A stretch of DNA of 64,000 nucleotides from an uncultured bacterium (GTDB lineage Bacteria > Patescibacteriota > Minisyncoccia > Moranbacterales > UBA2206): positions 62,746-126,745 of the forward strand of contig CAIZXS010000005.1 in assembly GCA_903937035.1 (NCBI GenBank), written 5' to 3'. Positions 1 through 33,310 of this stretch are shown here, piece after piece. Within the stretch, counting starts at the first letter, position 1. Every line of letters starts with the position of its first letter. The notes below the pieces were generated by a model. The model ran no database searches and had not been told where the DNA came from. It worked only from the letters and a program-made list of their open reading frames with translations. A program made the position numbers and the translations under genes.

Positions 1-2277
1 TGAGAAATCTTTTTCCTTGCACTCATCCTTTGGAGCGCTGTCAGTGGAGTAGCCCTGGTCTTTGAGCCAATTTTTTATACCATCCTCCCAATTTTCAAAC
101 TGAGGATCATCTTTGGGGTTTTTAAGGGGATCTCCTCGAACATCATTCTTATTAATGTAATAAAGAATGCTATGTGCATCGGAAAATTTCTTCTTTTTTG
201 TTTTACTCTCTGGGCAAGCGTCATTAGCTAGGCAATATTTGTCATTTTCGCCAGGAATTTCACAAACCTTTAATTCCTTTTTCATTTCCAATTTACCATC
301 AAGGATGTCTTTGTTGGTTTCCTCTGGTTCATATTTTGGAAAATCCTCTGAGTTGTAGTTTTTTAGGGTTTGATCCATAAAACTACGCCAAATTGGAGCG
401 GCAACGAGAATTCCATCAGCACCTTGTTTCATCGTAGAATGATCATTGTTTCCCGCCCAAACTCCCACAGCTAATGATGGCGTGTATCCCATTGTCCAAC
501 CATCACGCCACTCATTGGTGGTTCCGGTTTTTGCAGCCACAGGACGATCGCTGAAGCTGAGGGGATTTTTGTCACCAAAAACCGGAGCGCGAAGACTGTT
601 TGTGGATAATATATAATCAATCATGGCAATATATTTTTCTTCTATTACTTTCTCTCCCTGACCTGTTGTGTATTTTTCTAGTGTGTTTCCTTTGCTGTCT
701 TCAATGCGTAGTATGGCTGTTTTATTATGGCGAATGCCACCTGTTGCAAAGGTGGAAAAGGCATTAACATGGTCCAATAGTTTAACTTCTCCACCGCCAA
801 GCACGAGGGATAATCCGTAGCGGTCAGGCTCATTTAGTGTTGTGATGCCCATATTTTTAGCTGTGGATACGGAGTCTTTTGCACCAGCTAAGTAGAGCGT
901 TTTTACTGCTGGAACATTTAATGACCTCGCTAAGGCATCTTTCATTTGCATGAGACCACTATTTTTCCCGTCATAATTTTTTGGATTGTAAACTTTTCCA
1001 TCTTCTGTGCTAAAGTTAGTGTCCGTGTCCCATATATTGGTTTCCGGGGTAAAGCCTTTTATAAAAGCAGTTAAATAGACGTAGGGCTTAAAGGATGAGC
1101 CTGGCTGCAAAAGGGAGTTGGCTACATTAACGTTTGGCTCAAAAAGGCAACTTTTTCCTGGTGTGCAGCCCTTTGGTTCACTTGGAGCAAAATAATCCTT
1201 ACTGCCAACCATTGCAAGTATTTGCCCGGTTTTGGGATCCATTGCAACTAAACCTGCATTGGATGCGCCATACGTTTTTGTGTTTTTATCCGCGCCTTCC
1301 TTAACAGCTTTTTCTGCTATTTGTTGTTTTTCCCAGTCAAGTGTTGTGTAAACCTTGAAACCGCCTTGTTCAACAGCTGTATCACCATATTTTTGTTGTA
1401 AATAATCTTTGATATACATCACAAAATGAGGAGCGGCAATGATATTTTTTTGTATTTGTATTTTACTCAAAGTTGACTCTTCTATTGCTGCATTAGCCTG
1501 GTCTTCTGTTATATAACCTAATCTCGCCATGGTTTTTAGGGCAAAGTTTTTTCTCCCAATGAGGGCGTCTGTGTGTGAACCATATGGAGAATAGTAGGCA
1601 GTAGCCTGTGGTAGGGCGGAAATGAGCGCTGCTTCATCGAGAGTCAGGTCTTTAGCTGGTTTTCCAAAGAATGTTTGAGCGGCGGCTTCAATGCCGTAGG
1701 CGTTTGAGCCATAGGGGATTTCATTGAGGTACATCGCCAAGATTTCATCTTTTGAGAATTTTGTCTCTACTTCAAGTGAAAGAATAACTTCCTTGATTTT
1801 TCTCACAAGTGTTTTTTCGTTTGAAAGAAGGGAGTTTTTGACAAATTGTTGGGTTATAGTTGACCCTCCTTGGGCCTTACCAAAATTAATAATGTCCTTA
1901 AAAATCGAGCGAAGAATGGAGGTTAGTTTTATTCCATGATGATTGTAAAAATCTTGGTCCTCAAGGCTGATGGTGGCATATTTTAGGACATCAGGCATTT
2001 CATTGAAAGCAATTTGAGTTCTTTTTTCTTCACCATGAACCTCATATAGTAAGTGTTCTCCGGTGCGGTCATAAATCTTTGTTGATTCGGCAATGAAGCG
2101 ATTGTTAATTTTTCCCGGATCGGGGAGATCTTTTGAAAAATAGGCAAATATACCGATAGTTGCCAAGAGGCCAACACCAGCGAGGATGCCAAAAAGTTTA
2201 AGGAGGAGTTTCCATGGAATATGGAATTTTCTCTCTTTCAAATAGGTAGAGTTTTTGGGTGAAAAAATATTTTGCAT
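1..2277 (-). CDS. Class A penicillin-binding protein (PBP1A-like transglycosylase/transpeptidase), C-terminus off window
   Basis: Manual translation of the minus strand from ATG at 2277..2275 gives MQNIFSPKNSTYLKERKFHIPWKLLLKLFGILAGVGLLA (N-terminal TM anchor). Around 1740 the same frame reads LAMYLNEIPYGSNAYGIEAA, the glycosyltransferase family 51 signature. The frame stays open to position 1, so it is absent from the ORF track (no stop in window). Confidence 0.8.
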   Translation of the reverse strand, partial: MQNIFSPKNSTYLKERKFHIPWKLLLKLFGILAGVGLLATIGIFAYFSKDLPDPGKINNRFIAESTKIYDRTGEHLLYEVHGEEKRTQIAFNEMPDVLKYATISLEDQDFYNHHGIKLTSILRSIFKDIINFGKAQGGSTITQQFVKNSLLSNEKTLVRKIKEVILSLEVETKFSKDEILAMYLNEIPYGSNAYGIEAAAQTFFGKPAKDLTLDEAALISALPQATAYYSPYGSHTDALIGRKNFALKTMARLGYITEDQANAAIEESTLSKIQIQKNIIAAPHFVMYIKDYLQQKYGDTAVEQGGFKVYTTLDWEKQQIAEKAVKEGADKNTKTYGASNAGLVAMDPKTGQILAMVGSKDYFAPSEPKGCTPGKSCLFEPNVNVANSLLQPGSSFKPYVYLTAFIKGFTPETNIWDTDTNFSTEDGKVYNPKNYDGKNSGLMQMKDALARSLNVPAVKTLYLAGAKDSVSTAKNMGITTLNEPDRYGLSLVLGGGEVKLLDHVNAFSTFATGGIRHNKTAILRIEDSKGNTLEKYTTGQGEKVIEEKYIAMIDYILSTNSLRAPVFGDKNPLSFSDRPVAAKTGTTNEWRDGWTMGYTPSLAVGVWAGNNDHSTMKQGADGILVAAPIWRSFMDQTLKNYNSEDFPKYEPEETNKDILDGKLEMKKELKVCEIPGENDKYCLANDACPESKTKKKKFSDAHSILYYINKNDVRGDPLKNPKDDPQFENWEDGIKNWLKDQGYSTDSAPKDECKEKDFS

Positions 2278-2359: not shown

Positions 2360-3319
2360 TTAGGTTTCTGATAGTTTTTTCTTGAAAATATCAAGAAGTT
2401 CTTGGTACATTTCTAGCATATAGGGTTTTTCTTCTGGGGTAAAAAATAGTCCAGGCATAGAGTTTAATTCAACTATCCAGGGTTTTTTGTTTTCATCAAA
2501 CATAAAATCAATAGAATATATGCGAGGGCTGAATGTGGCGAAAACGGTATGGGCATAAGTAATAATTGGCTGTAATGATTTGGGCAATTTTTCTTTGGGC
2601 ACAATAATAAGTGAGCCGCCTTGTGCAAGATTAGCTAGGAAGCTTCCATCTTTTGGTTCTCTGATATAGGCATAGATTAATTTATTATTAACAAAAACCA
2701 ATCTAAGGTCATGCATTTTTTTTGATACGCCCGGCACGCCACAAGAAGAGTCAATAAACTCTTGCACAATATTTTCTTTTTCTATTTTCTTAATTTTGCT
2801 AGTATTTTTTTTGCCCATGATTTGAACATCTTTCCCACCACTCTCACTAATCGGCTTTAGGACAATCTTTGTGGAATGAATTTGTGGGAGAATGTTTTTT
2901 AGTTCGCCTAAATTTTTTATGACCCAGCTTTTTTTTGACCATTTATCAAAAATTAGGCTAGTGGTCAGTTTATCATCAATAAGATTGGTAAATCTCAAGT
3001 CATTAATAAAGGGATATCGCTCACCAATCAATTCTTTTTTATAGTAAACTTCTAGGCGCGATTTTGTTTTATCATAAATCAAATCTGGCTGGATGTTTTT
3101 AACCTTTTTCCAATTAGCGCCCTCACCTTCAAATACCCAGGCATATTTAAAAAGCTGTTTCTTGTAATCGTACCACTCATAAGAGGCGCGATACATCTGG
3201 ATGTTATTTTTTTTACAAAGAGAGTAAAAATATTCATAAGAATATTGATAATCTTTATTGCTAAAGGGCTTGGCTTTTTTCCAATCGCTCTTACCAAAAA
3301 GGATCATTACTTTTTTCAT
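2360..3319 (-). CDS. ATP-grasp ligase, RimK-like (fourth of four tandem ATP-grasp genes)
   Basis: 319 aa. C-terminal motif IDFMFDENKKPWIVELNSMPGL matches the ATP-grasp E-x-N...PG signature. Overlaps the upstream gene by 4 nt (3316..3319). Confidence 0.6.
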   Translation of the reverse strand: MKKVMILFGKSDWKKAKPFSNKDYQYSYEYFYSLCKKNNIQMYRASYEWYDYKKQLFKYAWVFEGEGANWKKVKNIQPDLIYDKTKSRLEVYYKKELIGERYPFINDLRFTNLIDDKLTTSLIFDKWSKKSWVIKNLGELKNILPQIHSTKIVLKPISESGGKDVQIMGKKNTSKIKKIEKENIVQEFIDSSCGVPGVSKKMHDLRLVFVNNKLIYAYIREPKDGSFLANLAQGGSLIIVPKEKLPKSLQPIITYAHTVFATFSPRIYSIDFMFDENKKPWIVELNSMPGLFFTPEEKPYMLEMYQELLDIFKKKLSET

Positions 3320-4233
3320 ATATTTAAGGAAATTAGTTGAATTATTTTTTCAGCCACATTTATTTTTGGGTACACCGATTGGAATCCATCGAGTCCGAAA
3401 AATAAATTAACCTCAATTATTAAAAATCCATTGCTTGTTGATAGGATGTCCAGCCCAGCCAGCTCGAGACCCATTTTTTTGCACACGCCAACAGCAAAGC
3501 GGCTCATTTTTGAATTGCTATATTTTTCCACATGCCCTCCGAGAGAGTAGTTGTTTTTCCATTGTCCATTTTGAGCGCTCCTTTTCATTATGCCTAAACA
3601 TTTTCCGCCAACAACTAGCGCTCTGTAATCAGCTTCGTTTTTGACGTAGGGTTGAAAAATCGTATTGGTATTTCTTCGGTTTTCAATAAAGGCAGCTAGT
3701 TCTTTTTCATTTTTTAATTTCCACACACTACTTCCGCCGCCGCCATAGCTTTCTTTAGCAACAAGGGGGAAATGAAAGCCTTGGTTTTTTAAAAAATAAA
3801 AAACGCGTTCTTTTTTATTATCGCAAAAATGGATAGTTGGAATAGCTGGGATTTTTCGCGAAGCAAATATGTGCATCTGAGAAAACTTATTATAGAACGG
3901 ATATTGTTGAAAAAACTTAGAATTCGGAGTATAGATATTTTTATCTTTCAGTATGTCGAGCAAAACACTATATTCATTTTCCAGATTAAAGGGAATTTCT
4001 ACTCCGCTAGTTTTTTTTATGATTGGGAAGCGAAAGATGTCGAAAATAACGGAATTTATTTTTCTTAGGTTTAATTTATTTTTTCCAATATATACATCTT
4101 TTTTAAAAAAAGAAAGCTCGGACCATTTTGCGTATATATGGGGAATATTTGTTTTGTTCAAGGTAGGTATTATTTGCTGTTTTGAGCTAGATTCCTCACC
4201 AATACCTATTAACAGAATTTTTTTCATAGACAA
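3316..4233 (-). CDS. ATP-grasp ligase, RimK-like
   Basis: 305 aa. Glycine-rich loop ESYGGGGSSVWKL. C-terminal AGLDILSTSNGFLIIEVNLFFGLDG resembles RimK AGVDIL...MEVNASPGLEG. Confidence 0.65.
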   Translation of the reverse strand: MSMKKILLIGIGEESSSKQQIIPTLNKTNIPHIYAKWSELSFFKKDVYIGKNKLNLRKINSVIFDIFRFPIIKKTSGVEIPFNLENEYSVLLDILKDKNIYTPNSKFFQQYPFYNKFSQMHIFASRKIPAIPTIHFCDNKKERVFYFLKNQGFHFPLVAKESYGGGGSSVWKLKNEKELAAFIENRRNTNTIFQPYVKNEADYRALVVGGKCLGIMKRSAQNGQWKNNYSLGGHVEKYSNSKMSRFAVGVCKKMGLELAGLDILSTSNGFLIIEVNLFFGLDGFQSVYPKINVAEKIIQLISLNI

Positions 4234-4278
4234 GTCATATCTAATAAGGCCTTATTATTGTGTCCCAAGCTTTGGTCT

Positions 4279-5256
4279 TTATTTTTCAGATAGGTTACTT
4301 TTTTGTGTTGTACTGAGCTTTAAAATAAAATTGATAATATCCCTGATCACGTTTCTAGATTTTCCAGAAGTTGGATTATAATGGATGTAGATGTCGGGTT
4401 TTCCATTTATTTCTAGAATCCCAAATGTTTGATTAGCTGGGTCGGCGGAAATATCCTCGCAAATTATATCAATGCCGGCGAGATAATCGCCAATGGCGTC
4501 AGCAGCCTTGGAACAGATGGAGATAATTTTTGCATTAACTATATCCGTCACATCTCGAGTTTCTCCTCCTTCAGCTAGAGAGGAGCTTTTTTTAATTGAA
4601 GCGATTTCTCCTGCAGCCAGGATGTGATTAAGGGAAAATCCCTGCTCGCTTAATATTTTTTTCAAAGTTCTGTCTATGGGCGTCTTTCTGTGAGTGCTTT
4701 TTTGTTTTTCCTCAATGAGTTTTTCAATGGTAGAAAGGCCATCACCAAAAACTCTTGGCGGAATCATCTCTAATGCTCCAATAACCTTTTCATCTAACAT
4801 AAGAACGCGATATTCTTTGCCAAAAATCATCTCCTGGGCGATAAGAGTTCTGAAATTAGAAATCTCACTCGTTAATATGGAGATTGCTTCTTCTGAGTTT
4901 TTAATGTAAGGAAAAATTCCCTGGCTATTGGAGCCAGAGGAGTCTTTGATGATGATGGGAAATTTGAGGCCAGAAAGCTTGCTGGCAATATCTTTTTTTT
5001 GAAAGTTTTTTCTGAAAAAGAAAACCGTTTCTGGTGTTGGAAGGGAGCGTCTTCGCAGTAGTGTATAGGTTAAGTCTTTGTGTGTTGTTGCTCCTGCTAT
5101 GCTAATGAAGTTTTTGGCAATTCTGAATTTTCTTGTAATTAAAAAAGCCTTCCCTCGGACATGGATATAGTAGCAGCCTCGCTCAGGAATGACCTCCTCA
5201 AATGTTCCTCCCATTTCCTCGACAACTTTTCTGATCAGTGGTGGATTTTTTATCAT
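4279..5256 (-). CDS. ATP-grasp ligase, RimK/cyanophycin-synthetase-like
   Basis: 325 aa. LAGIDIICED...FGILEINGKPDI ATP-grasp signature. Directly abuts the upstream gene (5257). Confidence 0.6.
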   Translation of the reverse strand: MIKNPPLIRKVVEEMGGTFEEVIPERGCYYIHVRGKAFLITRKFRIAKNFISIAGATTHKDLTYTLLRRRSLPTPETVFFFRKNFQKKDIASKLSGLKFPIIIKDSSGSNSQGIFPYIKNSEEAISILTSEISNFRTLIAQEMIFGKEYRVLMLDEKVIGALEMIPPRVFGDGLSTIEKLIEEKQKSTHRKTPIDRTLKKILSEQGFSLNHILAAGEIASIKKSSSLAEGGETRDVTDIVNAKIISICSKAADAIGDYLAGIDIICEDISADPANQTFGILEINGKPDIYIHYNPTSGKSRNVIRDIINFILKLSTTQKSNLSEK

Positions 5257-6663
5257 TTACTTACTTGTATCAATTAAAAACTTTTTCAAATTAACCTTGC
5301 CAATAATCATTGGATATTGCATGTGGGATCGATCAACTATAGTCATCTTTGTGGAAGTAGTGATATTGTCCATGACAAATTCAATATTTATCATTGGGCG
5401 GTATGTATAGCCATGAGAGGATTTGACGGGAATAGCGGAAATGATATCGGGAATTTTTTCATATAATTTTCGACGCTCATCTCTGTTGGTATTTTTCAAA
5501 TCATCATAGGAAATGTTTAATTTTTCAAACTCCTCTAGCGCGCTGCCATAGCCCAGTTGTTGAGCCAATGCGTTGTCTATTGATGACCAATCAGCGCCTG
5601 TGTCAATCTTGGCTTCTATTTCGATTTCTTTTCCGTCCTTGCCAATAAGCCTTACTTTTTCTATTGCGCCGATTACTTTTTTTCCCGAAATTTCTTCCAG
5701 TTCTTCTTCGATTTCTCCTCCAAAGAGATCCATGCCAACGCGAATACCTTTTTTGACAGTTTTGATTTTGATACCAGCCGCTTTTTTCAATCGTCCCTTT
5801 AGTCCATCAAGATTAGCAACTTGAATGGCAAGGCCAGGGCGTGCATTTAATTCCAAAATTACTGGTCCTCGCTCTTTGTCTATTGCTACGTCAACCCCAA
5901 GAAAACCTAGGTTGGAAATTTCTTGTGAGCGAACAGCAATATTTAAGATGTCCATCCAATAGGGGATTTTGATTCCCGAAAGTAAGAGTCTTGTGCCAGG
6001 AACGTATTCAATAATTTTTTGTTTTCCAAGGACCGCTGTCGTTGTTACGCCAGAAGCAAGGTCGATGCCGACACCAATTGCACCTTGCGCCAGGTTAGCT
6101 TTTCCATGTGATTCTTTGGTGGGGAGGCGCAACATTGCCATGATGGGCATTTTATTGAAAACAATAATGCGAATATCTGGGATGCCTTTATATGCGTAGG
6201 GCTTAAAGAGTTTTAAAAGTTTTAAGCGTTCTTCGAAAAAGGCAATATCAGGAATCCCAGAAAGTGAATACGAGCCGTCTAGAATATTCCGTGTATGGTT
6301 TTTGAGGTCATTAATCGTAATAATTGAGCCATCGGCCTTCACCCAAGCATCATCTCTGCGCTTTTTTCGTCCATAAACAACGACAATGCCTTCACCGCCA
6401 AATCCGCGATTAGGTTTTAAAACAAAGCTATCGGGTAATTTTTGCCAATCAAAACCATCCAAATCTTCTAGAGATTTGATTTGAGAGATAAGGGCGGGAA
6501 CAGCAATATCATTTTTCTTGAGTACCCTTTTGCTCAGAAGTTTGTTGTCAGCCAGTCTTTTGGCGCTAACACGGTTGAATGGACGAATGTATTCCAGATT
6601 TCTGGCATTCATTCCGAGAATTCCCCGGCTTTTTTTGATAAATTCAAACATATAGTTTATCAC
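5257..6663 (-). CDS. Fusion protein: alpha-L-glutamate-ligase-like ATP-grasp (ATPgrasp_ST type) + C-terminal retropepsin-like RimB-type putative zinc protease domain (PF05618-like)
   Basis: 468 aa. N-terminus ILGMNARNLEYIRPFN and VILELNARPGLAIQ (ATP-grasp). C-terminus EIEIEAKIDTGADWSSID (D-T-G-A aspartic-protease-like motif) and YRPMINIEFVMDNITTSTKMTIVDRSHMQYPMIIGKVNLKKFLIDTS, matching the RimK-associated protease family pattern. Confidence 0.55.
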   Translation of the reverse strand: MINYMFEFIKKSRGILGMNARNLEYIRPFNRVSAKRLADNKLLSKRVLKKNDIAVPALISQIKSLEDLDGFDWQKLPDSFVLKPNRGFGGEGIVVVYGRKKRRDDAWVKADGSIITINDLKNHTRNILDGSYSLSGIPDIAFFEERLKLLKLFKPYAYKGIPDIRIIVFNKMPIMAMLRLPTKESHGKANLAQGAIGVGIDLASGVTTTAVLGKQKIIEYVPGTRLLLSGIKIPYWMDILNIAVRSQEISNLGFLGVDVAIDKERGPVILELNARPGLAIQVANLDGLKGRLKKAAGIKIKTVKKGIRVGMDLFGGEIEEELEEISGKKVIGAIEKVRLIGKDGKEIEIEAKIDTGADWSSIDNALAQQLGYGSALEEFEKLNISYDDLKNTNRDERRKLYEKIPDIISAIPVKSSHGYTYRPMINIEFVMDNITTSTKMTIVDRSHMQYPMIIGKVNLKKFLIDTSK

Positions 6664-6789
6664 ACACTAACTTCGTGCTGGCACAAAGTGCCAAATAGCT
6701 TTTTATAATAGGTAAATAATTTTTTTCCAACATTTTATTTAACCCCCCCAGTGGTTGCTGATAAAAGCATGGAGTTAGTGTGGGACCGG

Positions 6790-7455
6790 TTAGCTTCTCT
6801 TAATAATCTCCCCAAAGCGCAAATATTCACTGAGGCGCAGCCCTGTCCACTTACCAATGATAACGTTAAGCGGAATTGTGAGAAGAATAACCCATGGGTA
6901 AAAAGCGATAAAATGAATCAAGACTTCCCAGCTAGCAATATAAAAGCCGAGGATGGAAATTAGCAGTGTTTCTGTTGCCAGGAGAATGGCGGCGCGGTCG
7001 CCTTTTTCAATTTGAACGGCAATAAACTTTTCCACCAAAGTAATCATGATAAGAATAGGAAAAATCGAGACAGAGGCGAGTCCAGTTCTTTTTAAGCTTC
7101 CGCCAATCGCGAGCATCAAAAGAATGGAAAGAGCAACAATTGTAAGCATGATGGCCACTCGGGGAAGATAGAGAAGGCGAAAAGATTTAAGGGCAATTCG
7201 CATAAGCATCCCAATGAGAATGATCATTACAAAAATTAAAATCCCATATCTGAGCCCATCCGTCGCTAGAAAGGCGAAAGTGACCAAAAGCGGAGTGTAG
7301 ATTCCAAAAGCCTTAATCCCAATCACTTGGCGCAAAAAAGCGATAAGAGTGGCAATAATCGGTAGCATGAGGATTAGCTTGATTGTTTCAAAGGGCACGC
7401 CCTCATTTAAAAAGAACGTCAAAATAGGGCTAACACTGAAATTGATTTCATTCAT
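6790..7455 (-). CDS. Polytopic membrane protein, ~7 TM helices (possibly 7TM_transglut-like, no transglutaminase domain)
   Basis: 221 aa with seven hydrophobic segments. Start overlaps the ruvC stop by 4 nt (ATGA at 7452..7455), suggesting translational coupling. Lies immediately upstream of the ATP-grasp genes. Confidence 0.4.
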   Translation of the reverse strand: MNEINFSVSPILTFFLNEGVPFETIKLILMLPIIATLIAFLRQVIGIKAFGIYTPLLVTFAFLATDGLRYGILIFVMIILIGMLMRIALKSFRLLYLPRVAIMLTIVALSILLMLAIGGSLKRTGLASVSIFPILIMITLVEKFIAVQIEKGDRAAILLATETLLISILGFYIASWEVLIHFIAFYPWVILLTIPLNVIIGKWTGLRLSEYLRFGEIIKRS

Positions 7456-7946
7456 GATGCATTTTTTAAACTAATTATAGCTCGACTATTGGCGTGACAC
7501 ACAGCAATCGCCAGTGCGTCAGCCACATCATCAGGCTTAGGAATTGCGTTTAGGTGTAATACGCTTTTGATCATTTGTTGCATTTGCTTTTTTTCCGCCC
7601 GGCCATAGCCCGTGAGGGCTTGCTTGACTTGAAGCGGTGTGTAACCAAACACTCTAACACTATTTTGGCGTAAAGTCAAGAGAATTGCCCCGCGGGATTG
7701 CGCGACTTGAATGACGGTTTTTTGGTTCTTGAAAAAAAAGAGCGTTTCAATAGCGGCTTCTGTTGGTTGGTGCTCTCTGATTATTCCCGCTAAATCATCA
7801 GAAACCTCGAGAATTCGCTCATCATCACTGTCATTCTTTGAGGTGCTGATGTGCCCATAGGCCAAAGGCAAGAGTTTATCACCCCTAATTTCAATAATTG
7901 CCCATCCAGTAGTGGCTGTGCCGGGGTCAATTCCGAGAATTTTCAT
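7452..7946 (-). CDS. ruvC: Crossover junction endodeoxyribonuclease RuvC
   Basis: 164 aa. MKILGIDPGTATTGWAIIE...AIPKPDDVADALAIAVCHA, a typical RuvC resolvase fold signature. Confidence 0.9.
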   Translation of the reverse strand: MKILGIDPGTATTGWAIIEIRGDKLLPLAYGHISTSKNDSDDERILEVSDDLAGIIREHQPTEAAIETLFFFKNQKTVIQVAQSRGAILLTLRQNSVRVFGYTPLQVKQALTGYGRAEKKQMQQMIKSVLHLNAIPKPDDVADALAIAVCHANSRAIISLKNAS

Positions 7947-7951
7947 TGTTT

Positions 7952-8668
7952 TTAGCCTAAATTGCTATAAATTTCACTCACATCATCATGGTCATCCAGA
8001 AGTTCCATGAGATTTTCGTAGGTTTCACGCATTTTTGCGTCAACCGTTATGGTAGTTTTGGGTAGATAAATTAGACCCGAGTCAATTATTTTAAGGTTTT
8101 CCTCAGCAAGGCTTTCTCGCACTTTGGCAAAATCTTTCTGATCGGTGATTATATTCAATACGCCTTCTTCCAAAATCGTGTCTTTGGCGCCAGCTTCAAT
8201 GGCGAGCATTTCCAGCTCGTCCGCTTCTTTTCCCTCAAGATCAATGCTGATGTTGCCAACTTGTTCAAAGTTCCACATCGCCGAGCCTTTTTCGCCTAAC
8301 TTGGAATTGTTTTTAGTGAGAATTGTTTTAACTTCCGATACAGTACGGTTTTTATTGTCTGTTGTACAGGAAATGAGGAGCATGAGCTCTCCTGGTCCAA
8401 CCGCTTCATAGAGAATTGCTTCAATCATCGCCCCCTTGATTTCGCCCGTTCCACGCTTAATGGCTCTTTCAATATTTTCTTTGGGCATATTCATCTCTCG
8501 TGCGCGATCAACCGCCATTCTAAGCTGAAAGTTTGATTCGAGCTTCCCTCCACCGTCTCTTGCCGCAATTGTGACTAACTTTCCGTATTTAGTGAAAATT
8601 TTGCCACGCTTAGCGTCGTTTATGCCTTTTCGTTGTTTTATTCCCGCCCAGTGTGAATGTCCTGACAT
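7952..8668 (-). CDS. yebC: YebC/PmpR family DNA-binding transcriptional regulator
   Basis: MSGHSHWAGIKQRKG...KNRTVSEVK family hallmark. The ORF track extends to 8704, but the conserved family N-terminus MSGHSHW begins at 8668. Confidence 0.85.
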   Translation of the reverse strand: MSGHSHWAGIKQRKGINDAKRGKIFTKYGKLVTIAARDGGGKLESNFQLRMAVDRAREMNMPKENIERAIKRGTGEIKGAMIEAILYEAVGPGELMLLISCTTDNKNRTVSEVKTILTKNNSKLGEKGSAMWNFEQVGNISIDLEGKEADELEMLAIEAGAKDTILEEGVLNIITDQKDFAKVRESLAEENLKIIDSGLIYLPKTTITVDAKMRETYENLMELLDDHDDVSEIYSNLG

Positions 8669-9090
8669 AAGCTCATGAAGCATAAAACATATAGCATGTA
8701 ACAAAATACAAATTGCTAGGCGTTTTGCGCTTTTTCGTTAACTATTTTATAGTTCTAGCTTAGCACTTTAATATGAAAAATTCAAGCAAAAATGATTGAC
8801 AAGAATGGTTTTATGTGCTCGAATAAATAGTCTAAGTTGGTTTTTTAAGGCTTAGAACAAGGCTAGCTCAGTTAGTTGATAAAAAGGAGCTAGAGTTTTT
8901 TGGCAAGAATGCTTTTTTAGTTCAAGGCTTATAGCACAAAAACTAAACCTATTTCCCTTTTATTATTTTTAAGGGCAAAAATATTAAAATATTTTAAAAA
9001 AGTTTTCCGCTGTGGGCGGATTTTTTTGTGGGAACTTATCTTGGTTTGATTTGTGAGAATGAGAATTGATTTCTGTGATTAAAAAATTTA

Positions 9091-9176: not shown

Positions 9177-9476
9177 TTATGCCCTAGAATAGATTTTAAT
9201 TTCCCATTTCTTCTCTGCGCATTCAGTGCAAAAATATTGACCATCAAATTTTTTCACCAGGATTTTTTTTATGGCGGCTCCAATTCTTGATCTGGTACTC
9301 ACAAGCTCCATCAAGGCCATATTTACGAGCTCCTTGATGGTGATGAAGGTTTGCCTGCCATCACCTCCGCAGTTGGCGCAGTTATGAAAAACTGATTTTT
9401 GCTCAAGCAAAACATCTGCCTCAAAGCAACTATTGTCGCAGGTGATACTAATCCTGTTTTTTATTTTTGGCATCAT
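9177..9476 (-). CDS. Small zinc-ribbon protein (CxxxC/CxxC x3), function unknown
   Basis: 99 aa with Cys pairs CDNSC, CANC and CTEC. Own terminator downstream. Confidence 0.45.
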   Translation of the reverse strand: MMPKIKNRISITCDNSCFEADVLLEQKSVFHNCANCGGDGRQTFITIKELVNMALMELVSTRSRIGAAIKKILVKKFDGQYFCTECAEKKWEIKIYSRA

Positions 9477-13827: not shown

Positions 13828-16800
13828 CTATATCTCTGTTACTCTTTCCACTTCCTCCAAAGTAGTCTCACCCTCTAAAACTTTCAAAATTCCATCTTGT
13901 GGCATTGTGATCATGCCTTCTTCCATGGCTTTTTGATTGAGTTCAGATGTGACTGCTCCTCGCATGACAGCTTCTTGGATTTCGCGGGAGAATGTAAATA
14001 TTTCACTGATGGTTGTGCGGCCCTTATAGCCAATGTGATTGCATTTATCGCAGCCATTGGGTTTGTGAATCTCTGATATTTCCGGGATTTCTACGCCTGC
14101 TTTTAGACTGATCGTTTTTAGGACTTTTTCCATCTTCTGTTTCTTTTCTTCAGTCGGAGCGATTTTTATTTTGCACTCACAGAGTGTGCGGACCAAGCGT
14201 TGAGCGATAAAAGCGTTGACTCCAGAGACAATATCCTCCGGTGCAACGCCCATATTGAGCATTCTAGCTACTGCTCCGGCAGCATTGTTGGTGTGGAGGG
14301 TGGAAAGTACGAGATGCCCCGTGAGAGCGGCTTGAACGGCAATGCTCGCGGTTTCATTGTCGCGGATTTCACCAATCATCATTATGTCGGGATTTTGGCG
14401 AAGCAGGGCGCGCAGGGCTGTGGAGAAAGTATAACCATCTTTTTCGCTGACGGGAGTTTGCAAGATACCTTCCATCTGATATTCGATTGGATCTTCCACG
14501 GTGATGATTTTGATTTCAGGATTTTTAATTAAATTCAAAATAGCATAGAGTGTAGTGGTTTTCCCGCTGCCAGTCGGTCCAGTATTCAAGACGACGCCAT
14601 TTGGTTTTGATACTTCAATTTTTATTTTTTCCAAATTTTGCTTTCTGATTCCTAGCTTATCCAAGTTCAGCTCCACAGATGATTTACTGAGAAGTCGCAT
14701 TACAACTGTTTCTCCAAACCCACCCAAAATTATAGACACACGGATGTCAACAGTCTTTTCTTTTAATTCTGTTAACTCTTCATCAAAACTGATACTAAAG
14801 CGACTATCGATTACACCTTGCCTCGCTTCAGTTTTCACGCCACTGAGCAGCTTGATCTGGCCCAAAAAGGTCGTGTATTCAGTAAGAGGAAGAGAGGCGA
14901 TTGTTTGGAGGATGCCATCAATGCGGAAGCGGATTTTGACGCTTTCCTTTTCTGGTTCAATGTGAATGTCTCCTACACTCAAAATTTGAGCAGCGGAAAA
15001 AATGATCTTAATGGTGTCTGTGATTTTTGTTCCAACAAGGAGCGTTTGCATTTTTTCAAAATCATTAACATTGTCCTTGGTTTTGTCAAAAAACTCCTTT
15101 TTAATCGGCAAGGTACTGCCTAGGATTTGTGACATTAATTTTTCATAAATACTTTCCAAAAAGTCCCCTTGTCCAGTGACTTTTTTCACCTCGTCAATGG
15201 AGGTGACACCACTTACGGCTTTTAGGATTCCATCTTGGAGCATTGTTACCATGCCTTCTTCAAGAACGGCCATCGTTATTTCTGTTTCACCAGCCAAATC
15301 AAGAATCAGTTTTTCTGTTTCCGGACTAATTGTGAGAACTTCAAAAATACCCATTCGTCCTTTATAACCAGTATTACCACATTTAAGGCAACCTTTTGGG
15401 CGATAGAGTTGATCAATGCTTTTGGGAATTTCCACTTTCGCTCGTGGAGAAATGATGGATAAAATTCTTTTGATTGAATCAATTGTTTCTTTGGCGGGAA
15501 CATAGGATTCTTTGCAGCTACAAAGCTTGCGAACTAGTCGTTGCCCGATAACGGCGTTTACTGCTGGGGCGATGAAAGAAGGCTTGACGCCCATTTCAAC
15601 GAGACGGGGAATGGAGGCAATTGCACTATTGGTATGAAAAGTGGAAAGCACGAGATGTCCAGTGAGGGCAGAGTTGATGGCGATGTCAGCTGTTTCATCA
15701 TCGCGGATTTCACCAACTAGAATAATATCTGGATCTTGACGCACGATTGCGCGAAGACCGGTGGCAAAAGTGTAGCCACGAGCTTTTTCGATCTGAGTTT
15801 GGGAGACTCCTTTGACTTGGTACTCGATTGGATCTTCGATGGTGATAATCTTTTTATCTGGAGTGTTTAGCTTGCTGATAATGGCATAAAGAGTGGTAGT
15901 TTTTCCGCTGCCAGTTGGCCCTGTAGTGAGGATCATGCCATTTGGGGCTTCGATTTGCTTTTGAACTGTTTCATAGGCTAATCCCTGCAATCCGAGCTGC
16001 TCAATGTTGACATTGATCGAATCTGGATCAAGGAGTCGCATTACGATGGACTCTCCAAAGCTGCCAGGAATCGATGAAGCGCGGATAGCAATTTTTTTAT
16101 TTGATAGATTGACCTCAAAAGTTCCGTCTTGCGCCATATCAGAAAGATTGAGTTTCATGCCAGACATCATCTTGATTCTTGTCGCGATTCTTTTGTGGAT
16201 ATTGAGTGGAAAAAAAGCCACATCCTGGAGTACTCCGTCGATTCGATAGCGCAAGCGAAAATCTTTTTCTTCTGGCTCAATGTGAACATCGGATGCTCCT
16301 AGTGAATATGCTCCGGCCATGATGGTGTTCATGACGTCGGTTATAGGCATTTCCTTGATTCTGTCTTTTAGGACAATCAGGTTTTTTAGGGCTGTTTCAA
16401 ATTCACCAAGTTCGCTGTCATCAATTGTTAGACTTAACTGATCAAGGATTTCAGCGAAAACAATTTTTTTGTATTTTTCCAAAACTCGATCAAAGTTGTA
16501 ACTTGAAATAACAAAGAGTTTTGTTTGTATCCCGAGTTTTTCGGAAAAAGCTTTAAGGAATTCTCTCGTGTCTTCTCTCGTGGGGTCGGTGGTTACGATT
16601 GTGGCAAGCTTGCTTTTTCGTTGGATGGCGGCAATGCCGAATTTTCTGGCAGCACTTTCTTCAATCAATTTCAAGCTATCAATGGAAACGGGAACAATGT
16701 TGGTGTCAATATAGGGGAGTTCAAGTTGGGCAGCAAATTGCGCTGTCTTTTCCTCTTCTGATTGATGCTGCAGCTTGGAAACTAATTTGCTTGAAGTGGC

Positions 16801-16848
16801 TTTTTTTTCTTCTTCTGCCCCAACTGTTTTTTTTGTTATTTTTATCAT
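13828..16848 (-). CDS. Type II/IV secretion system ATPase (GspE/PilB family) with two complete tandem ATPase cores in one polypeptide
   Basis: 1006 aa. N-terminal T2SE_Nter-like region. Two Walker A boxes (TGPTGSGKTTTLYAI twice), two Asp boxes, two His boxes (LVLSTFHTN / LVLSTLHTN) and two tetracysteine motifs (CSCK..CLKCGNTGYKGR and CECK..CDKCNHIGYKGR). Confidence 0.85.
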   Translation of the reverse strand: MIKITKKTVGAEEEKKATSSKLVSKLQHQSEEEKTAQFAAQLELPYIDTNIVPVSIDSLKLIEESAARKFGIAAIQRKSKLATIVTTDPTREDTREFLKAFSEKLGIQTKLFVISSYNFDRVLEKYKKIVFAEILDQLSLTIDDSELGEFETALKNLIVLKDRIKEMPITDVMNTIMAGAYSLGASDVHIEPEEKDFRLRYRIDGVLQDVAFFPLNIHKRIATRIKMMSGMKLNLSDMAQDGTFEVNLSNKKIAIRASSIPGSFGESIVMRLLDPDSINVNIEQLGLQGLAYETVQKQIEAPNGMILTTGPTGSGKTTTLYAIISKLNTPDKKIITIEDPIEYQVKGVSQTQIEKARGYTFATGLRAIVRQDPDIILVGEIRDDETADIAINSALTGHLVLSTFHTNSAIASIPRLVEMGVKPSFIAPAVNAVIGQRLVRKLCSCKESYVPAKETIDSIKRILSIISPRAKVEIPKSIDQLYRPKGCLKCGNTGYKGRMGIFEVLTISPETEKLILDLAGETEITMAVLEEGMVTMLQDGILKAVSGVTSIDEVKKVTGQGDFLESIYEKLMSQILGSTLPIKKEFFDKTKDNVNDFEKMQTLLVGTKITDTIKIIFSAAQILSVGDIHIEPEKESVKIRFRIDGILQTIASLPLTEYTTFLGQIKLLSGVKTEARQGVIDSRFSISFDEELTELKEKTVDIRVSIILGGFGETVVMRLLSKSSVELNLDKLGIRKQNLEKIKIEVSKPNGVVLNTGPTGSGKTTTLYAILNLIKNPEIKIITVEDPIEYQMEGILQTPVSEKDGYTFSTALRALLRQNPDIMMIGEIRDNETASIAVQAALTGHLVLSTLHTNNAAGAVARMLNMGVAPEDIVSGVNAFIAQRLVRTLCECKIKIAPTEEKKQKMEKVLKTISLKAGVEIPEISEIHKPNGCDKCNHIGYKGRTTISEIFTFSREIQEAVMRGAVTSELNQKAMEEGMITMPQDGILKVLEGETTLEEVERVTEI

Positions 16849-18259: not shown

Positions 18260-19312
18260 TTATAATTTCTCGATTTCTTCCAAGAGTGTCTTGAGAATAT
18301 CCTTTTCCTGAACTGATTTAATTACCTTGCCTTTGGCAAATATCGCACCCATGCCTTTTCCGCCAGCCACGCCAATGTCGGCTTCACGCGCTTCACCAGG
18401 GCCGTTGACCACACAGCCCATAACAGCGATATGGATATCTTTGTCAATATTTTTCACCGCTGCTTCAACTTTTTCAGCCAAGTCGATGAGAGCAATTTGG
18501 GTTCGTCCACAAGTTGGGCAGCTGGTAACGGTTACACCTTTTTTTCTCAGTTTTAGTGATTTTAAAATCTCCCATGCCACTTTCATTTCTTCAACAGGAC
18601 TTGCCGTGAGTGAAACACGCAGAGTGGCGCCGATGCCTTCATAGAGGAGAATTCCAAGACCAATCGACGACATAATTGTTCCACGGAAAATTGTACCGGC
18701 TTCGGTGATACCAATGTGCATTGGGTAGTCAACTTTTTTGGACAAAAGGCGATAGGCTTCAACCGTTCTTTCAATGTCCGAGGCTTTCATGGAAATTAAG
18801 ATGTCTTTAAATTTATATTTTTCCAAAATTCGAATATGGCGCATGGCTGATTCAACCATCCCTGCTGCCGTGACCTTGTCTTTGTATTTTTTTAGTATGT
18901 CTTTTTCCAAAGAGCCGCCGTTAATGCCAATCCGAATTGGAATTTTGTTTTTCTTGCAAGCCATTACCACTGCCCTTATTTTGTCTTCTGTTCCTATATT
19001 TCCCGGATTGATGCGAACTTTGTCAATACCTTGCGCAATAACTTCGAGTGCTAATTTGTGATCAAAATGAATGTCGGCCACAAGTGGAATGTGAATTAGT
19101 TTTTTGATTTTCCCCACAGCTTTTGCTGCTTCCATGTCCAAAATGGCTACGCGCACAATCTCGCAGCCAGCTTTTTCTAGCTCCAAAATTTGTTTCACGG
19201 TTGCCTTGATATCTCGCGTATCGGTGTTGCACATTGATTGTACGCGCACAGGATTTCCACCGCCCAGCTTGTATGGTCCAACTTTGACGACGCGGGATTT
19301 GTATTTTTTCAT
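18260..19312 (-). CDS. ispG: 4-hydroxy-3-methylbut-2-en-1-yl diphosphate synthase IspG/GcpE
   Basis: 350 aa. MKKYKSRVVKVGPYKLGGGNPVRVQSMCNTDT.., C-terminal Fe-S cysteines CPTCGR. Confidence 0.9.
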   Translation of the reverse strand: MKKYKSRVVKVGPYKLGGGNPVRVQSMCNTDTRDIKATVKQILELEKAGCEIVRVAILDMEAAKAVGKIKKLIHIPLVADIHFDHKLALEVIAQGIDKVRINPGNIGTEDKIRAVVMACKKNKIPIRIGINGGSLEKDILKKYKDKVTAAGMVESAMRHIRILEKYKFKDILISMKASDIERTVEAYRLLSKKVDYPMHIGITEAGTIFRGTIMSSIGLGILLYEGIGATLRVSLTASPVEEMKVAWEILKSLKLRKKGVTVTSCPTCGRTQIALIDLAEKVEAAVKNIDKDIHIAVMGCVVNGPGEAREADIGVAGGKGMGAIFAKGKVIKSVQEKDILKTLLEEIEKL

Positions 19313-19334
19313 GTAATTAGGATGTTTTAAAAAT

Positions 19335-20204
19335 TTAGGCTATTTCTATAAAAAACTGTGGGTAATATTTTTGGAGAATCTCTCTTGCTCTGAGCACATC
19401 CCTCTTTGTTTCAAAAATTCCGAAGACCGTTGGTCCCTTGCCAGTAAGGGATACTCCAATTGCGCCAAAAGAAATGAGTGCTTTTTCTAGTGTTTCTGAA
19501 ATTGGGTATTTTTTCTTAGCTACGATTGAGAAGTCATTATACAGGCATCGGCTCATTTCATTCAGGTTGGAGCTATTTTTCACAAATTTAGCAGAAAGAT
19601 TTTTTCTTTTTGGGTTGTTCATAAAAAGCAAATCTTTGTCGAGCTCGGAGTATGCCCAGGGGGTGGAAATTTCTCCAGCAGGATTGATGACTAGAATATT
19701 AAGTTTTGGAAAACTTTTGATTTCTTTGATTTTCTCTCCCATGCCACAAATGAGGGCAGCGCGAGAATTTGAGATAAAAAAAGGGATATCTTTTCCGACT
19801 TCTGCGGCTATATCGATGAGCTCTCTTTGGGATAAAATATTTTTAAAATGAGTATTGAGGGTTAAGATAACCGCTGCGCCGTTGGAACTTCCCCCGGCCA
19901 TTCCAGCCGATAGTGGAATGTTTTTCTCGATGAATATCCTTAGCCCGACGGATTTTCCTGTTTTTTTAAAAAAACGTTCAGCAATTTTCCAGCAAATATT
20001 CTTTTCGTCAATCGGGACAGCAGGGATATTGCAAATGATTTCAATACCATTTTTATTTTCATCAAAAATAAGCTCAATTTTATCGAAAAGATTCTCTGTT
20101 TTTAGCATCACTGAGCGAAGTTCATGAAAACCACTAGGTAGTTTTTTTGTCACCTCCAGAGTCAAGTTTAGTTTAGCGGGTGATTTCACTTTAATTTTTT
20201 TCAT
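19335..20204 (-). CDS. ispE: 4-diphosphocytidyl-2-C-methyl-D-erythritol kinase IspE
   Basis: 289 aa. KVKSPAKLNLTLEV, GHMP kinase motif PLSAGMAGGSSNGAA. Confidence 0.85.
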   Translation of the reverse strand: MKKIKVKSPAKLNLTLEVTKKLPSGFHELRSVMLKTENLFDKIELIFDENKNGIEIICNIPAVPIDEKNICWKIAERFFKKTGKSVGLRIFIEKNIPLSAGMAGGSSNGAAVILTLNTHFKNILSQRELIDIAAEVGKDIPFFISNSRAALICGMGEKIKEIKSFPKLNILVINPAGEISTPWAYSELDKDLLFMNNPKRKNLSAKFVKNSSNLNEMSRCLYNDFSIVAKKKYPISETLEKALISFGAIGVSLTGKGPTVFGIFETKRDVLRAREILQKYYPQFFIEIA

Positions 20205-20679
20205 CCTTGACCAGACTAATAATTACAAAAACCTGGATTCCTTCACCTTTTCCGAAAGCGGTCAGTTTTTCTCCCGAAGTAGCATTGATTCCAATTTGAG
20301 ACTTTTCAATTTCTAGGAGCTTGGTTAAACTTTCCTTCATTTTTTCTTCTAGTGGGATTATTTTTGGTCTTTGGCATTCCAAAGAAATCCCAATATTATT
20401 AATCACATATCCTCTTTCTTTTATATGGCGCATGGCTACTTTTAAATATTCACGGCTATCATTAATTCCCGCTTGATTCATTTTATCCGCATAGATAGAA
20501 AAAGACTCTCCTCCAATTGCCTGTTCTAACGCGCGACAAATCGCGTGAATTACAGCATCGCCATCAGAATTTCCCTCAAGGCTGGGCTCATTTTCAATTT
20601 CAATTCCACCTAAAATTAATTTTTTGTCCGGATTCCCTGAAAATTTATGAGAATCTTGTCCTAGTCCAACTCGAAACAT
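20191..20679 (-). CDS. ispF: 2-C-methyl-D-erythritol 2,4-cyclodiphosphate synthase IspF
   Basis: 162 aa. MFRVGLGQDSHKF.. and GNSDGDAVIHA. Confidence 0.9.
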   Translation of the reverse strand: MFRVGLGQDSHKFSGNPDKKLILGGIEIENEPSLEGNSDGDAVIHAICRALEQAIGGESFSIYADKMNQAGINDSREYLKVAMRHIKERGYVINNIGISLECQRPKIIPLEEKMKESLTKLLEIEKSQIGINATSGEKLTAFGKGEGIQVFVIISLVKDEKN

Positions 20680-20683
20680 ATTT

Positions 20684-21385
20684 TTAATAGTTTTTTAGGA
20701 TTAATTTTGCCAATTCCAAATCTAGTGGCGTTGTTAATTTAAAGTTATTTTTTGAGGCTTCAATTATTTTCACTTTTTTCCCAAATCTTTCAACAAGGCT
20801 TACATCGTCAGTGCCCAGAAAATTATCAGAGTTGGCTTTTTGAAAAGCTTTTTTTGCCAGGGTAAATTGAATTGCTTGTGGAGTTTGCATGTTCCAAAGT
20901 TTTGATCTGTCGAGAACTTGGATGGAAAGGCCATATTTATTGACTTCTCGAATAGTATCCTTTGTTCTGTGGGCAACGGCGCAAGCGCCACGCTTTCTTG
21001 CTTCCATGACACAAGAATGCAACTCCAAATTAGTTACAAAAGGGTTCGCTCCATTGTGGAAAATCAATATTAGCCCTTGTTTGCCTTTGTTGTCAAACGA
21101 AGTGTCAATAAAGTCAATCCCGGCATAACTCGAATCTTGTCTCTCTTTTCCGCCAGGAATTATTCCCAGTATTTTTTTAAATTTATATTTTTTAACGATT
21201 TTCTCGAAAGTGTTTCGGTCTTTTTCTTGAGCTACCAAAACAATGCCGTCGATATCTTTCGATTTTTCGAATGCTTCTAATACATAAAAAATAATCGGTT
21301 TTCCTCCGAGAGTAATAAGCGTTTTATTTTTCCCCGCGCCCATTCTTTTTCCAATTCCAGAAGCGAGGATGATTCCAATATTCAT
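20684..21385 (-). CDS. ispD: 2-C-methyl-D-erythritol 4-phosphate cytidylyltransferase IspD
   Basis: 233 aa. MNIGIILASGIGKRMG N-terminal nucleotidyltransferase motif. Confidence 0.85.
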   Translation of the reverse strand: MNIGIILASGIGKRMGAGKNKTLITLGGKPIIFYVLEAFEKSKDIDGIVLVAQEKDRNTFEKIVKKYKFKKILGIIPGGKERQDSSYAGIDFIDTSFDNKGKQGLILIFHNGANPFVTNLELHSCVMEARKRGACAVAHRTKDTIREVNKYGLSIQVLDRSKLWNMQTPQAIQFTLAKKAFQKANSDNFLGTDDVSLVERFGKKVKIIEASKNNFKLTTPLDLELAKLILKNY

Positions 21386-21392
21386 AGGCGTG

Positions 21393-29385: not shown

Positions 29386-29386
29386 T

Positions 29387-33296: not shown

Positions 33297-33310
33297 AGAT
33301 TTTAATTAAA

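Follow-up and report, generated by a model that had tools for sequence, protein, structure and literature searches.

The window analysed here, a 64,000-nt stretch of DNA from Moranbacterales, members of the candidate phyla radiation (CPR/Patescibacteria), carries on its minus strand, between yebC-ruvC and a gene for a class A penicillin-binding protein (PBP), a membrane protein with seven transmembrane segments (7TM), an ATP-grasp ligase fused to a retropepsin-like protease, and three further ATP-grasp ligases that we call L2, L3 and L4 (Table 1). To judge from profile and alignment matches, the core of this array, namely the 7TM protein, the ATPgrasp_ST ligase and the retropepsin, is a distant and rearranged relative of the rloABC system of Pseudomonas aeruginosa, and the array as a whole is very probably a peptide-ligation system of the Rlo/Rim type equipped with a variable tailoring cassette. 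What is new here is that the extra ligases form a hypervariable, exchangeable cassette anchored to a core conserved throughout the phylum.

The original prediction for this stretch had read these genes as an operon of four paralogous ligases, coupled to ruvC and ending next to a PBP, and had proposed an uncharacterised peptide-ligation system. Its gene models hold: the ORFs lie on the minus strand where it had placed them, the 4-nt overlaps of the ruvC stop with the 7TM start (ATGA) and of L3 with L4 are real, profile searches recover every Pfam family it had named (PF08443, PF14397, PF05618 and PF14402), and the last protein of the array has both domains of a class A PBP. The four ATP-grasp enzymes are likewise genuine, each with an ATP-binding Lys, a Mg-binding Asp and the D-x-R and E-x-N motifs, all 100% conserved within their families. 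Four adjacent intact ATP-grasp genes, kept in relatives, are far beyond chance.

Table 1. Genes and features of the locus, with the matches on which each assignment rests
Feature	Position	Strand	Match or basis
yebC	7952-8704	minus	PF01709 + PF20772 (profile search)
ruvC	7452-7946	minus	PF02075, E = 3e-50
7TM membrane protein, 221 aa	6790..7455	minus	PF14402 7TM_transglut, E = 2e-32
Spacer between 7TM gene and fusion	6664..6789	minus	lineage-specific palindromic insertion, ~130 nt
Ligase-protease fusion ORF	5257-6663	minus	PF14397 ATPgrasp_ST, E = 5e-66; PF05618 (Zn_protease, renamed RimB-like), E = 1e-10
Fusion: RloC-like ATPgrasp_ST ligase domain, aa 11-296	5764..6621	minus	PF14397, TIGR02291
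Fusion: Glu-rich linker LFGGEIEEELEEISG, aa 309-323	5683..5727	minus	alignment of 13 sequences
Fusion: RimB/RloA-like retropepsin (aspartic protease) domain, aa 326-464	5260..5676	minus	PF05618
Accessory ligase L2, 325 aa	4279..5256	minus	stand-alone ATP-grasp, cyanophycin-synthetase G domain-like
Accessory ligase L3, 305 aa	3316..4233	minus	RimK-like ATP-grasp; start likely ATG at 4227
Accessory ligase L4, 319 aa	2360..3319	minus	divergent ATP-grasp
Class A PBP, cut by window edge	1..2277	minus	Transgly, E = 3e-57; Transpeptidase, E = 9e-23

The ligase-protease fusion and its membrane partner

The ligase domain of the fusion scored 223 bits against PF14397, for which the cutoff is 31.4 bits, and matched TIGR02291 ("alpha-L-glutamate ligase-like") at E = 3e-87; the latter score, 292.6 bits, falls just under the cutoff of 314.2 because the linker replaces the last 27 positions of the model. 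Its catalytic residues K79, R161, D254, E267 and N269 are invariant in the alignment. In the linker, which has a pLDDT below 50 in the AlphaFold2 (AF2) model, F310, G311, G312, E313, E315-317, E319, E320, S322 and G323 are invariant among 13 sequences of 65-87% identity. The protease domain that follows, recognised in the original prediction by its AKIDTGA motif, has an invariant D350-T-G-A and matched the NCBIfam RloA1/RloA3 models at E = 4-6e-11 (NF052262-4, 29-43 bits against cutoffs of 210-280) and the PDB entries 9g58/9g59 at E = 2e-8. Mutagenesis of RloA has shown that D48, K46, R114 and R137 are needed for poly-Glu cleavage, and the enzyme requires at least eight consecutive Glu, interruptions of which block cleavage (PMC12239564). 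Residues D350, K348, R418 and R441 of the fusion align with these four positions and are invariant or nearly so, the residues having been matched by counting through the alignment, with chain 9g58 corresponding to P. aeruginosa RloA numbering minus 20. No signal peptide and no hydrophobic segments were found in the fusion, and the missing signal peptide places the protease domain in the cytoplasm. We speculate that the Glu-rich linker could serve as a self-cleavage site for the protease, which is doubtful given the uninterrupted Glu run that RloA demands; alternatively, its docking site may be the cytoplasmic face of the 7TM protein, which is rich in Arg.

The 7TM protein falls in PF14402, as had been predicted, and not in a transporter family. 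It has seven hydrophobic segments and matched the NCBIfam RloB model NF052267 over positions 312-507 of 508 (85 bits against a 900-bit cutoff), and is best described as a homolog of the C-terminal 7TM domain of RloB without the transglutaminase domain. Its AF2 model is a helical bundle (pLDDT 82, pTM 0.77). Homologs across Moranbacteria are 71-99% identical and all about 218 aa long; R86, R99, R207 and R213 are invariant, and R42 is kept in at least 90%. The C-terminus is predicted to be cytoplasmic because the ligase follows the 7TM part in the 7TM-ligase fusion proteins of other bacteria. Our own interpretation of the helix limits, together with the positive-inside rule, would put the invariant arginines on cytoplasmic loops and the N-terminus outside, in agreement with the periplasmic position of the N-terminal transglutaminase domain of RloB. 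None of the cassette families consists of membrane proteins, which leaves the 7TM protein as the sole candidate for a membrane partner or exporter. Homology to CapC/PgsC of the poly-gamma-glutamate synthetase (CapB/C/A), an idea prompted by a motif resemblance, was not supported: hhalign against authentic CapC/PgsC proteins from pXO2 and other plasmids gave a probability of 0.1% (E = 0.45), and a permissive Pfam scan found PF14102 (CapC) in one of 56 members (E = 6.5).

The linkage of 7TM, ATPgrasp_ST and retropepsin genes was reportedly predicted from comparative genomics by Iyer et al. in 2009, as citing papers relate. Among characterised systems, rloABC of P. aeruginosa is the nearest, with genetics and protease biochemistry that have been published (Lormand et al., mBio 2025, PMC12239564). 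Deletion of rloB or rloC there suppresses the defects of mutants without the three RloA proteases, which implies that the joint product of ligase and 7TM protein has to be processed by the protease, and the phenotypes concern the envelope: mutants are affected in cell shape and in their response to beta-lactams, and the system has been linked to osmotic-stress tolerance (PMC12239564). In Shewanella, disruption of an RloB homolog alters membrane-vesicle production. The Moranbacterales core has the same three linked families (7TM_transglut, an ATPgrasp_ST/TIGR02291 ligase and a PF05618 retropepsin-like protease) and shares with rloABC the catalytic Asp and the poly-Glu-coordinating Lys and Arg of the protease. 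In contrast to RloA, which is a stand-alone protein secreted by means of a signal peptide, the protease here is cytoplasmic and forms the C-terminal part of a fusion with the ligase; the inactive periplasmic transglutaminase domain of RloB is missing from the membrane protein; all three proteins score below the NCBIfam Rlo/TIGR02291 cutoffs; and the invariant Glu-rich linker, the hypervariable cassette of extra ligases and sugar enzymes, and the CPR host have no counterpart there. The distribution of RloB has been reported as 96% proteobacterial (PMC12239564), and a literature search found no description of this system in CPR bacteria.

A variable cassette of ligases and sugar enzymes

Although the three stand-alone ligases of the window had been taken for paralogues, their best profile matches assign each to an ATP-grasp family of its own, and of the three enzymes predicted to be RimK-like it is L3 that fits the description best. 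L3 passes PF08443 (E = 2e-27, 96.7 bits) and matches the RimK structure 7qyr (E = 9e-15), whereas its scores against TIGR00768 (114.7 bits against a cutoff of 143.4) and the S6-Glu ligase model PRK10446 (55 bits against 331) fall short. L2 resembles the G domain of cyanophycin synthetase: it matches TIGR02068 at E = 1e-50, over model positions 211-473 of 862 only and with 172 bits against an 850-bit cutoff, and the CphA1 structures 7wac/7lg5 at E = 7e-30. It also matches the ATP-grasp domain of GshAB (E = 1.5e-35) and N-acetylglutaminylglutamine synthetase (E = 7e-22), in each case far below the cutoff. L4 has weak matches to RimK, ATPgrasp_ST, TTL and YheCD models (E = 4e-12 to 3e-7) and a sole PDB match, 7qys, at E = 0.008; its family is the commonest in Moranbacteria cassettes, with 24 of 163 cassette proteins. 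Within the three families the catalytic residues are fully conserved: K104, R150, D263, E282 and N284 in 10/10 members for L2; K160, D202, R204, D262, E274 and N276 in 6/6 for L3; and K155, D204, R206, D271, E284 and N286 in 24/24 for L4. The stand-alone ligases are candidates for new template-independent peptide-forming enzymes. Two other readings of these proteins were tried and rejected. As graspetide maturases they scored about 20 bits against TIGR04185/TIGR04187 (E = 2e-4 to 7e-4), where the cutoffs lie at 350-425, and had no conserved adjacent precursor; as anti-phage defence, PADLOC gave no match for any of the five proteins.

The place of these ligases becomes clearer in comparison with related genomes. 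A homolog search with the fusion returned more than 100 homologs of 65-98% identity, whose named sources were Candidatus Moranbacteria, Moraniibacteriota or Parcubacteria, and a scan of GTDB species genomes with two peptide patterns, one of them FGGE[IV]EEE, gave 427 relatives. Gene order was surveyed in the best 80 of these 427, all non-duplicate and essentially all Moraniibacteriota metagenome-assembled genomes, with ORFs taken as the longest ORFs and cassette proteins clustered at 40% identity. The core is present in 80/80 sampled loci, that is, in essentially every Moraniibacteriota species genome, and the order yebC-ruvC-7TM-fusion-[cassette]-PBP holds nearly everywhere, with identities to the window of 60-87% for the fusion and 56-97% for the 7TM protein. 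By contrast, the slot between the stop of the fusion and the start of the PBP gene holds from zero to six genes. Among the 64 complete loci, one (L077) has no cassette gene, 15 have one, 18 have two, 18 have three, seven have four, three have five and two have six, and the 163 proteins encoded in these slots fall into 46 clusters, or at least 46 families at 40% identity.

Pfam scans covered the cluster representatives except those of 13 singleton clusters, of which eight are ligase-sized (281-330 aa; c28, c31, c35, c36, c38 and c43-45). Most of the scanned families are ATP-grasp enzymes, variously RimK-like, YheCD-like, ATPgrasp_ST-like, CphA-G-like, Ddl-like or of a 489-aa ATP-grasp_3 type. 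The others comprise glycosyltransferases (GT1/GT4, GT2 and GT8), a YdjC-like sugar deacetylase, carboxypeptidases of the MATCAP/DUF1704 type, Mur-type ligases (M and C domains), a GNAT protein and, now and then, cargo of an unrelated kind (AbiEii). In the 63 loci with a cassette, the gene next to the fusion encodes a Pfam-confirmed ATP-grasp enzyme in 57, an unscanned ligase-sized singleton in five and a Mur-type ligase in one. Shuffled sub-modules recur, among them L3+L4, rimK4+c2(+MurLig), ST6+GT4+MATCAP and YheCD13+rimK8+YdjC. The set L2-L3-L4 of the window is shared with locus L008 and, with a fourth ligase added, with L086, and some relatives have five ATP-grasp domains in total. The four ligases that the original prediction singled out as distinctive are indeed present in the window, but because cassette content ranges so widely across relatives, four ATP-grasp domains are one state among many and the extra ligases are interchangeable members of the cassette.

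Several comparisons indicate that cassette and core have different histories. The cassette has a lower G+C (GC) content than the core in 63/63 loci, by 6.4 points on average; in the window, the values are 0.334 (L4) and 0.341 (L3) for two of the ligase genes, and 0.400 (fusion) and 0.417 (7TM gene) in the core. From pair to pair, the identity of cassette proteins follows that of the fusions poorly (Spearman rho 0.07-0.57). The window and L086 have fusions that are 66% identical and L2 proteins that are 81% identical; the window and L008 share 87% identity in the fusion and 41% in L3; and between L008 and L010 the figures are 91% for the fusion and 56% for L2. The close relatives L007, L008, L010 and L012, with fusions that are 80-87% identical, have cassettes that differ. 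On this evidence, the cassette phylogeny disagrees with that of the core and the cassette is exchanged between genomes.

Some further cassette proteins lack a Pfam match. A 632-aa protein at L026:11857-13755 carries an HExxH motif (LLGHENVHF) and could represent a further type of metallopeptidase. Clusters 14 (L012, L025 and L074) and 23 (L045 and L075) comprise proteins of about 261-266 aa whose genes always lie beside those for glycosyltransferases and for MATCAP or ATP-grasp_3 proteins.

Spacing, measured in about 60-76 related loci, sets the 7TM gene, the fusion and the cassette apart from their neighbours. Median gaps are 22 nt from the 7TM gene to the fusion, 4 nt from the fusion to the first cassette gene (30 nt or less in 89%) and 5 nt within the cassette, compared with 46 nt from ruvC to the 7TM gene and 93 nt from the last cassette gene to the PBP gene. 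These medians make 7TM-fusion-cassette a tight unit and ruvC and the PBP gene looser neighbours. The predicted coupling to ruvC therefore survives as an adjacency found phylum-wide, with overlap in 8% of loci, and the predicted link to the PBP as a conserved adjacency in which 30 nt or less separates the genes in only 5%. In addition, an exhaustive HMMER search yielding 1,973 cluster representatives revealed other fusion architectures: 7TM+ligase, in the cyanobacterium Oscillatoria; ligase+protease+MATCAP, in a record labelled only "uncultured bacterium" (AMFJ01); ligase+protease+YdjC; and ligase+protease with a second ATP-grasp domain. The plain ligase-protease fusion also occurs in Kerfeldbacteria. 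Tight spacing and the fusion proteins found elsewhere argue that the 7TM protein, the fusion and the extra ligases are one functional unit, as the original prediction had held.

A proposed product and its alternatives

We propose, with a probability of roughly 0.55 for the chain of steps as a whole, that the system makes a variable acidic peptide or glycopeptide independently of any template, and trims it, on the inner side of the membrane. The RloC-like ATP-grasp domain would sit at the cytoplasmic membrane face, where the 7TM protein offers its Arg-rich inner surface, and would use ATP to build an acidic (Glu/Asp-type) chain on an acceptor without a template. L2, L3 and L4 would each add residues to carboxylates of this chain, yielding a species-specific hetero-oligopeptide. 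The same slot would supply other ligases, Mur-type ligases, glycosyltransferases, a sugar deacetylase and C-terminal carboxypeptidases in other species, and because the enzymes differ, the product there would be a different peptide or glycopeptide. The fused retropepsin would cleave the acidic chain, either to limit how long it grows or to generate new ends, and the 7TM protein would pass the product to the cell envelope, or couple the two. An acidic chain is suggested by the conservation of residues that bind poly-Glu and by homology to RimK and CphA-G, and an envelope destination by the membrane partner, the envelope phenotypes of other bacteria and the sugar enzymes of other cassettes; the division of labour among the ligases and the role of the 7TM protein are what we infer from this arrangement. 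Stepwise synthesis of a heteropeptide, as first proposed, thus still appears the best reading, although the system is not wholly uncharacterised, its core being a distant relative of rloABC.

The G domain of CphA1 extends a peptide backbone at its C-terminus, and L2 is homologous to this domain. The same enzyme has, besides its polymerising ATP-grasp domain, a cryptic hydrolytic site of its own that makes primers (PMC9262961), which offers a functional analogy for a ligase with an attached hydrolase. Separate Mur-type ligase genes in the related cassettes of L015, L034 and L021 may be compared with the M domain. Unlike CphA1, L2 has neither N nor M domain, no Mur-type ligase is encoded in the window, and the hydrolase is a retropepsin unrelated to the N-domain site.

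Several points weigh against the proposed synthesis of an acidic peptide. The Rlo protease is secreted and the one here is cytoplasmic, and the two systems may accordingly follow different logics. The envelope destination draws on the phenotypes in Pseudomonas and Shewanella, on sugar enzymes in the cassettes of other species and on the adjacent PBP gene, and this adjacency may be mere conserved synteny. Transcription units were deduced from spacing, and in the window a 130-nt hairpin insertion separates the 7TM gene from the fusion. The AF2 model of the whole fusion is poor (pLDDT 53) and thus offers no structural evidence on the linker or the domain arrangement.

Alternatively, the enzymes might reversibly tag the C-terminus of a protein, in the manner of RimK and S6 or of the "tubulin code", with the retropepsin and, elsewhere, MATCAP removing residues and the 7TM protein acting as regulator, anchor or the target itself. 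RimK and RimB do this to the C-terminal end of ribosomal protein S6, and RimB is cytoplasmic (PMC12239564), like the protease domain here. The resemblance to the RimK-RimB system (with RimA), in which an ATP-grasp alpha-L-glutamate ligase is paired with a cytoplasmic, poly-Glu-trimming retropepsin, extends to the RimK-family match of L3, and the TTL-like matches of L4, the cytoplasmic location of every enzyme, and the recurrence of MATCAP-type C-terminal carboxypeptidases in cassettes and, in other lineages, as fusions to the ligase-protease would all fit. In contrast to RimK-RimB, the core ligase is of the ATPgrasp_ST type, has a 7TM partner and is accompanied by several heterogeneous ligases. 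No candidate target is encoded nearby, and, in line with the original prediction, which had noted no S6 gene in the vicinity, approximate S6 queries detected none in the 64-kb window. The C-terminus of the 7TM protein is basic and lacks the conservation to be expected of an acceptor, and glycosyltransferases, YdjC, Mur-type ligases and extreme cassette turnover are ill-suited to the tagging of one conserved protein. We regard tagging as possible but unlikely. Small soluble peptides made in the cytoplasm, such as glutathione-like thiols or osmolytes like N-acetylglutaminylglutamine amide (NAGGN), with the 7TM protein as a sensor or release channel, could account for the GshAB and N-acetylglutaminylglutamine synthetase matches of L2 and for the link of Rlo to osmotic stress. 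Those matches, however, are far below family cutoffs, an endoprotease with conserved poly-Glu-binding residues implies long chains, as the length requirement of RloA illustrates, and cassette glycosyltransferases and carboxypeptidases do not fit osmolyte synthesis, all of which leaves this reading quite improbable.

Stem peptides of peptidoglycan are built by ATP-grasp and Mur-type ligases (Ddl, MurC-F, D-Asp ligase), the enzyme classes found here, and the PBP gene follows the cassette on the same strand in 64/80 non-duplicate loci. The ligases could thus tailor peptidoglycan precursors, adding branch or cross-bridge residues to the stem peptide for the adjacent class A PBP, with cassette variation reflecting species-specific cross-bridge chemistry; the cell-shape and beta-lactam phenotypes of Rlo mutants (PMC12239564) would be in keeping with this. 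Yet the gap between cassette and PBP gene is rarely short, in a few loci the PBP gene is found on the opposite strand or at another place, and the PBP keeps 57-94% identity to the window across the surveyed loci while the cassette changes completely and is missing altogether from L077. Matches of the window ligases to Ddl models are weak and far below cutoff, and the proteobacterial rlo operon has not been described as linked to a PBP (PMC12239564). A role in precursor tailoring is therefore improbable. It could also be argued that there is no functional unit at all, the genes being mere neighbours in a compact, syntenic CPR genome and the slot a generic insertion hotspot, since unrelated cargo (AbiEii toxin, GNAT) at times occupies it, palindromic elements insert nearby, and the flanking synteny ruvB...yebC-ruvC...PBP-dnaN-dnaA is conserved anyway. 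Against this, 63/64 complete loci have at least one cassette gene, the first of which mostly encodes an ATP-grasp enzyme a few nucleotides from the fusion; the cassette enzymes are chemically coherent (amide ligases, peptidases, sugar enzymes); and other lineages have these classes joined covalently to the ligase-protease. The fusion proteins and the spacing already largely refute chance neighbourhood, to which we give very little weight.

A low-GC, recombining, modular cassette with glycosyltransferases between conserved flanks looks like a surface-variation locus, of which we found no account for CPR bacteria, and TupA-like ATP-grasp enzymes attach amino acids to surface polymers (bioRxiv 10.1101/2025.10.03.680091), an association of amidoligases with sugar enzymes that is also seen here. 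Unlike surface-polymer loci, this one has no flippase, polymerase or ABC exporter, and its ligases outnumber its sugar enzymes. The system is probably important to the organism, as genomes of about 1 Mb keep the core in every sampled species and spend up to six more genes on it. Tentatively, and at well below even odds, we suggest that Moranbacteria, and probably other CPR bacteria, possess a conserved, membrane-docked ligase-protease "engine" which, with exchangeable stand-alone ATP-grasp ligases, ligases of the Mur type, glycosyltransferases and carboxypeptidases, forms a modular assembly line that needs no template and makes a species-specific surface peptide or glycopeptide, a hypervariable "barcode" of the envelope. 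Were this so, diversifying selection through host attachment or phage evasion would be at work in these episymbionts, and cassette content would also reveal what the Rlo system of pathogens makes. The CPR version amounts to a natural experiment: the same core, differently fused, is paired with tailoring cassettes of dozens of kinds, and the chemistry of the product is narrowed down by the enzyme classes they contain, namely C-terminal ligases and carboxypeptidases, Mur-type ligases, sugar transferases and a deacetylase.

Flanking genes, the spacer and other features of the window

The genes yebC and ruvC are a conserved upstream flank that lies outside the system, and the PBP gene is a conserved downstream flank whose predicted link to the system is one of adjacency alone. 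Within the array, the junction of fusion and L2 (5256/5257) has a gap of 0 nt. The array is not gapless throughout, a spacer of 126-138 nt setting the fusion apart from the 7TM gene. The start of the fusion is almost certainly the ATG at 6651, because every homolog begins MFEF. The spacer contains an insertion with a 20-nt terminal inverted repeat (arms at 6766-6782 / 6663-6679) and an inner GGCAC-TTT-GTGCC hairpin. L008 and L012 share this insertion, with compensatory changes across the three species, but L007, L009, L010 and L011, which are equally close, lack it and have gaps of 3-13 nt. Other species have unrelated palindromes or tandem repeats at the same spacer (L081/L065, with 337-389 nt; L082, L038, L063 and L060). 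A riboswitch or leader RNA was rejected on the grounds of this distribution, of the absence of an Rfam match and of a fold z-score of -1.46, and a 29-aa spacer ORF (6733..6644) was rejected as a precursor peptide because it sits in the non-conserved insertion and is not preserved in L008. We read the spacer as a lineage-specific, hairpin-type intergenic insertion and not as a conserved part of the system.

Elsewhere in the window, a 99-aa ORF on the minus strand at 9177-9476, between yebC and a gene for an LTD/PKD protein, has two CxxC pairs (zinc-ribbon-like) and no Pfam match. A 1006-aa protein (13828-16848, minus) has two T2SSE (PilB-like secretion ATPase) matches; direct repeats about 1340 nt apart (D3, D4 and D9) show that the ATPase has probably been duplicated in tandem inside a single ORF, and L001 has a 1005-aa homolog at the same position. 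Upstream of the locus and in the same orientation, 18260-22535 (minus) carries genes of the methylerythritol phosphate (MEP) pathway, IspG/GcpE, a GHMP kinase (probably IspE), IspD and Dxr, an ordinary cluster that bears on lipid-carrier supply in a reduced genome. An intergenic repeat family of about 66 nt, starting TGTCATTCTGAGCGTAGC…GAGTCGAAGAATCT, has three copies (23531-23596, 28792-28857 and 52582-52647), two of which are followed about 80 nt downstream by a second repeat (28875-28926 and 52665-52716). Direct and inverted repeats of 53-67 nt with the hairpin CCTTCTCCTTGGTAAGGAGA(G/A)GG lie at 29326-29392, 29964-30020 and 33304-33415; they flank the segment from about 29.3 to 33.4 kb, which they could delimit as an insertion or duplication. 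In repeat families D2 and D18, 31302-31557 is duplicated at 33697-33955. Finally, three tandem copies with a 192-nt period and dispersed motifs of 28-38 nt (…GATGGAAAATAT…) occupy 57978-58485 and 60008-62277, suggesting at least one large repeat-domain (surface?) protein near the right end of the window.

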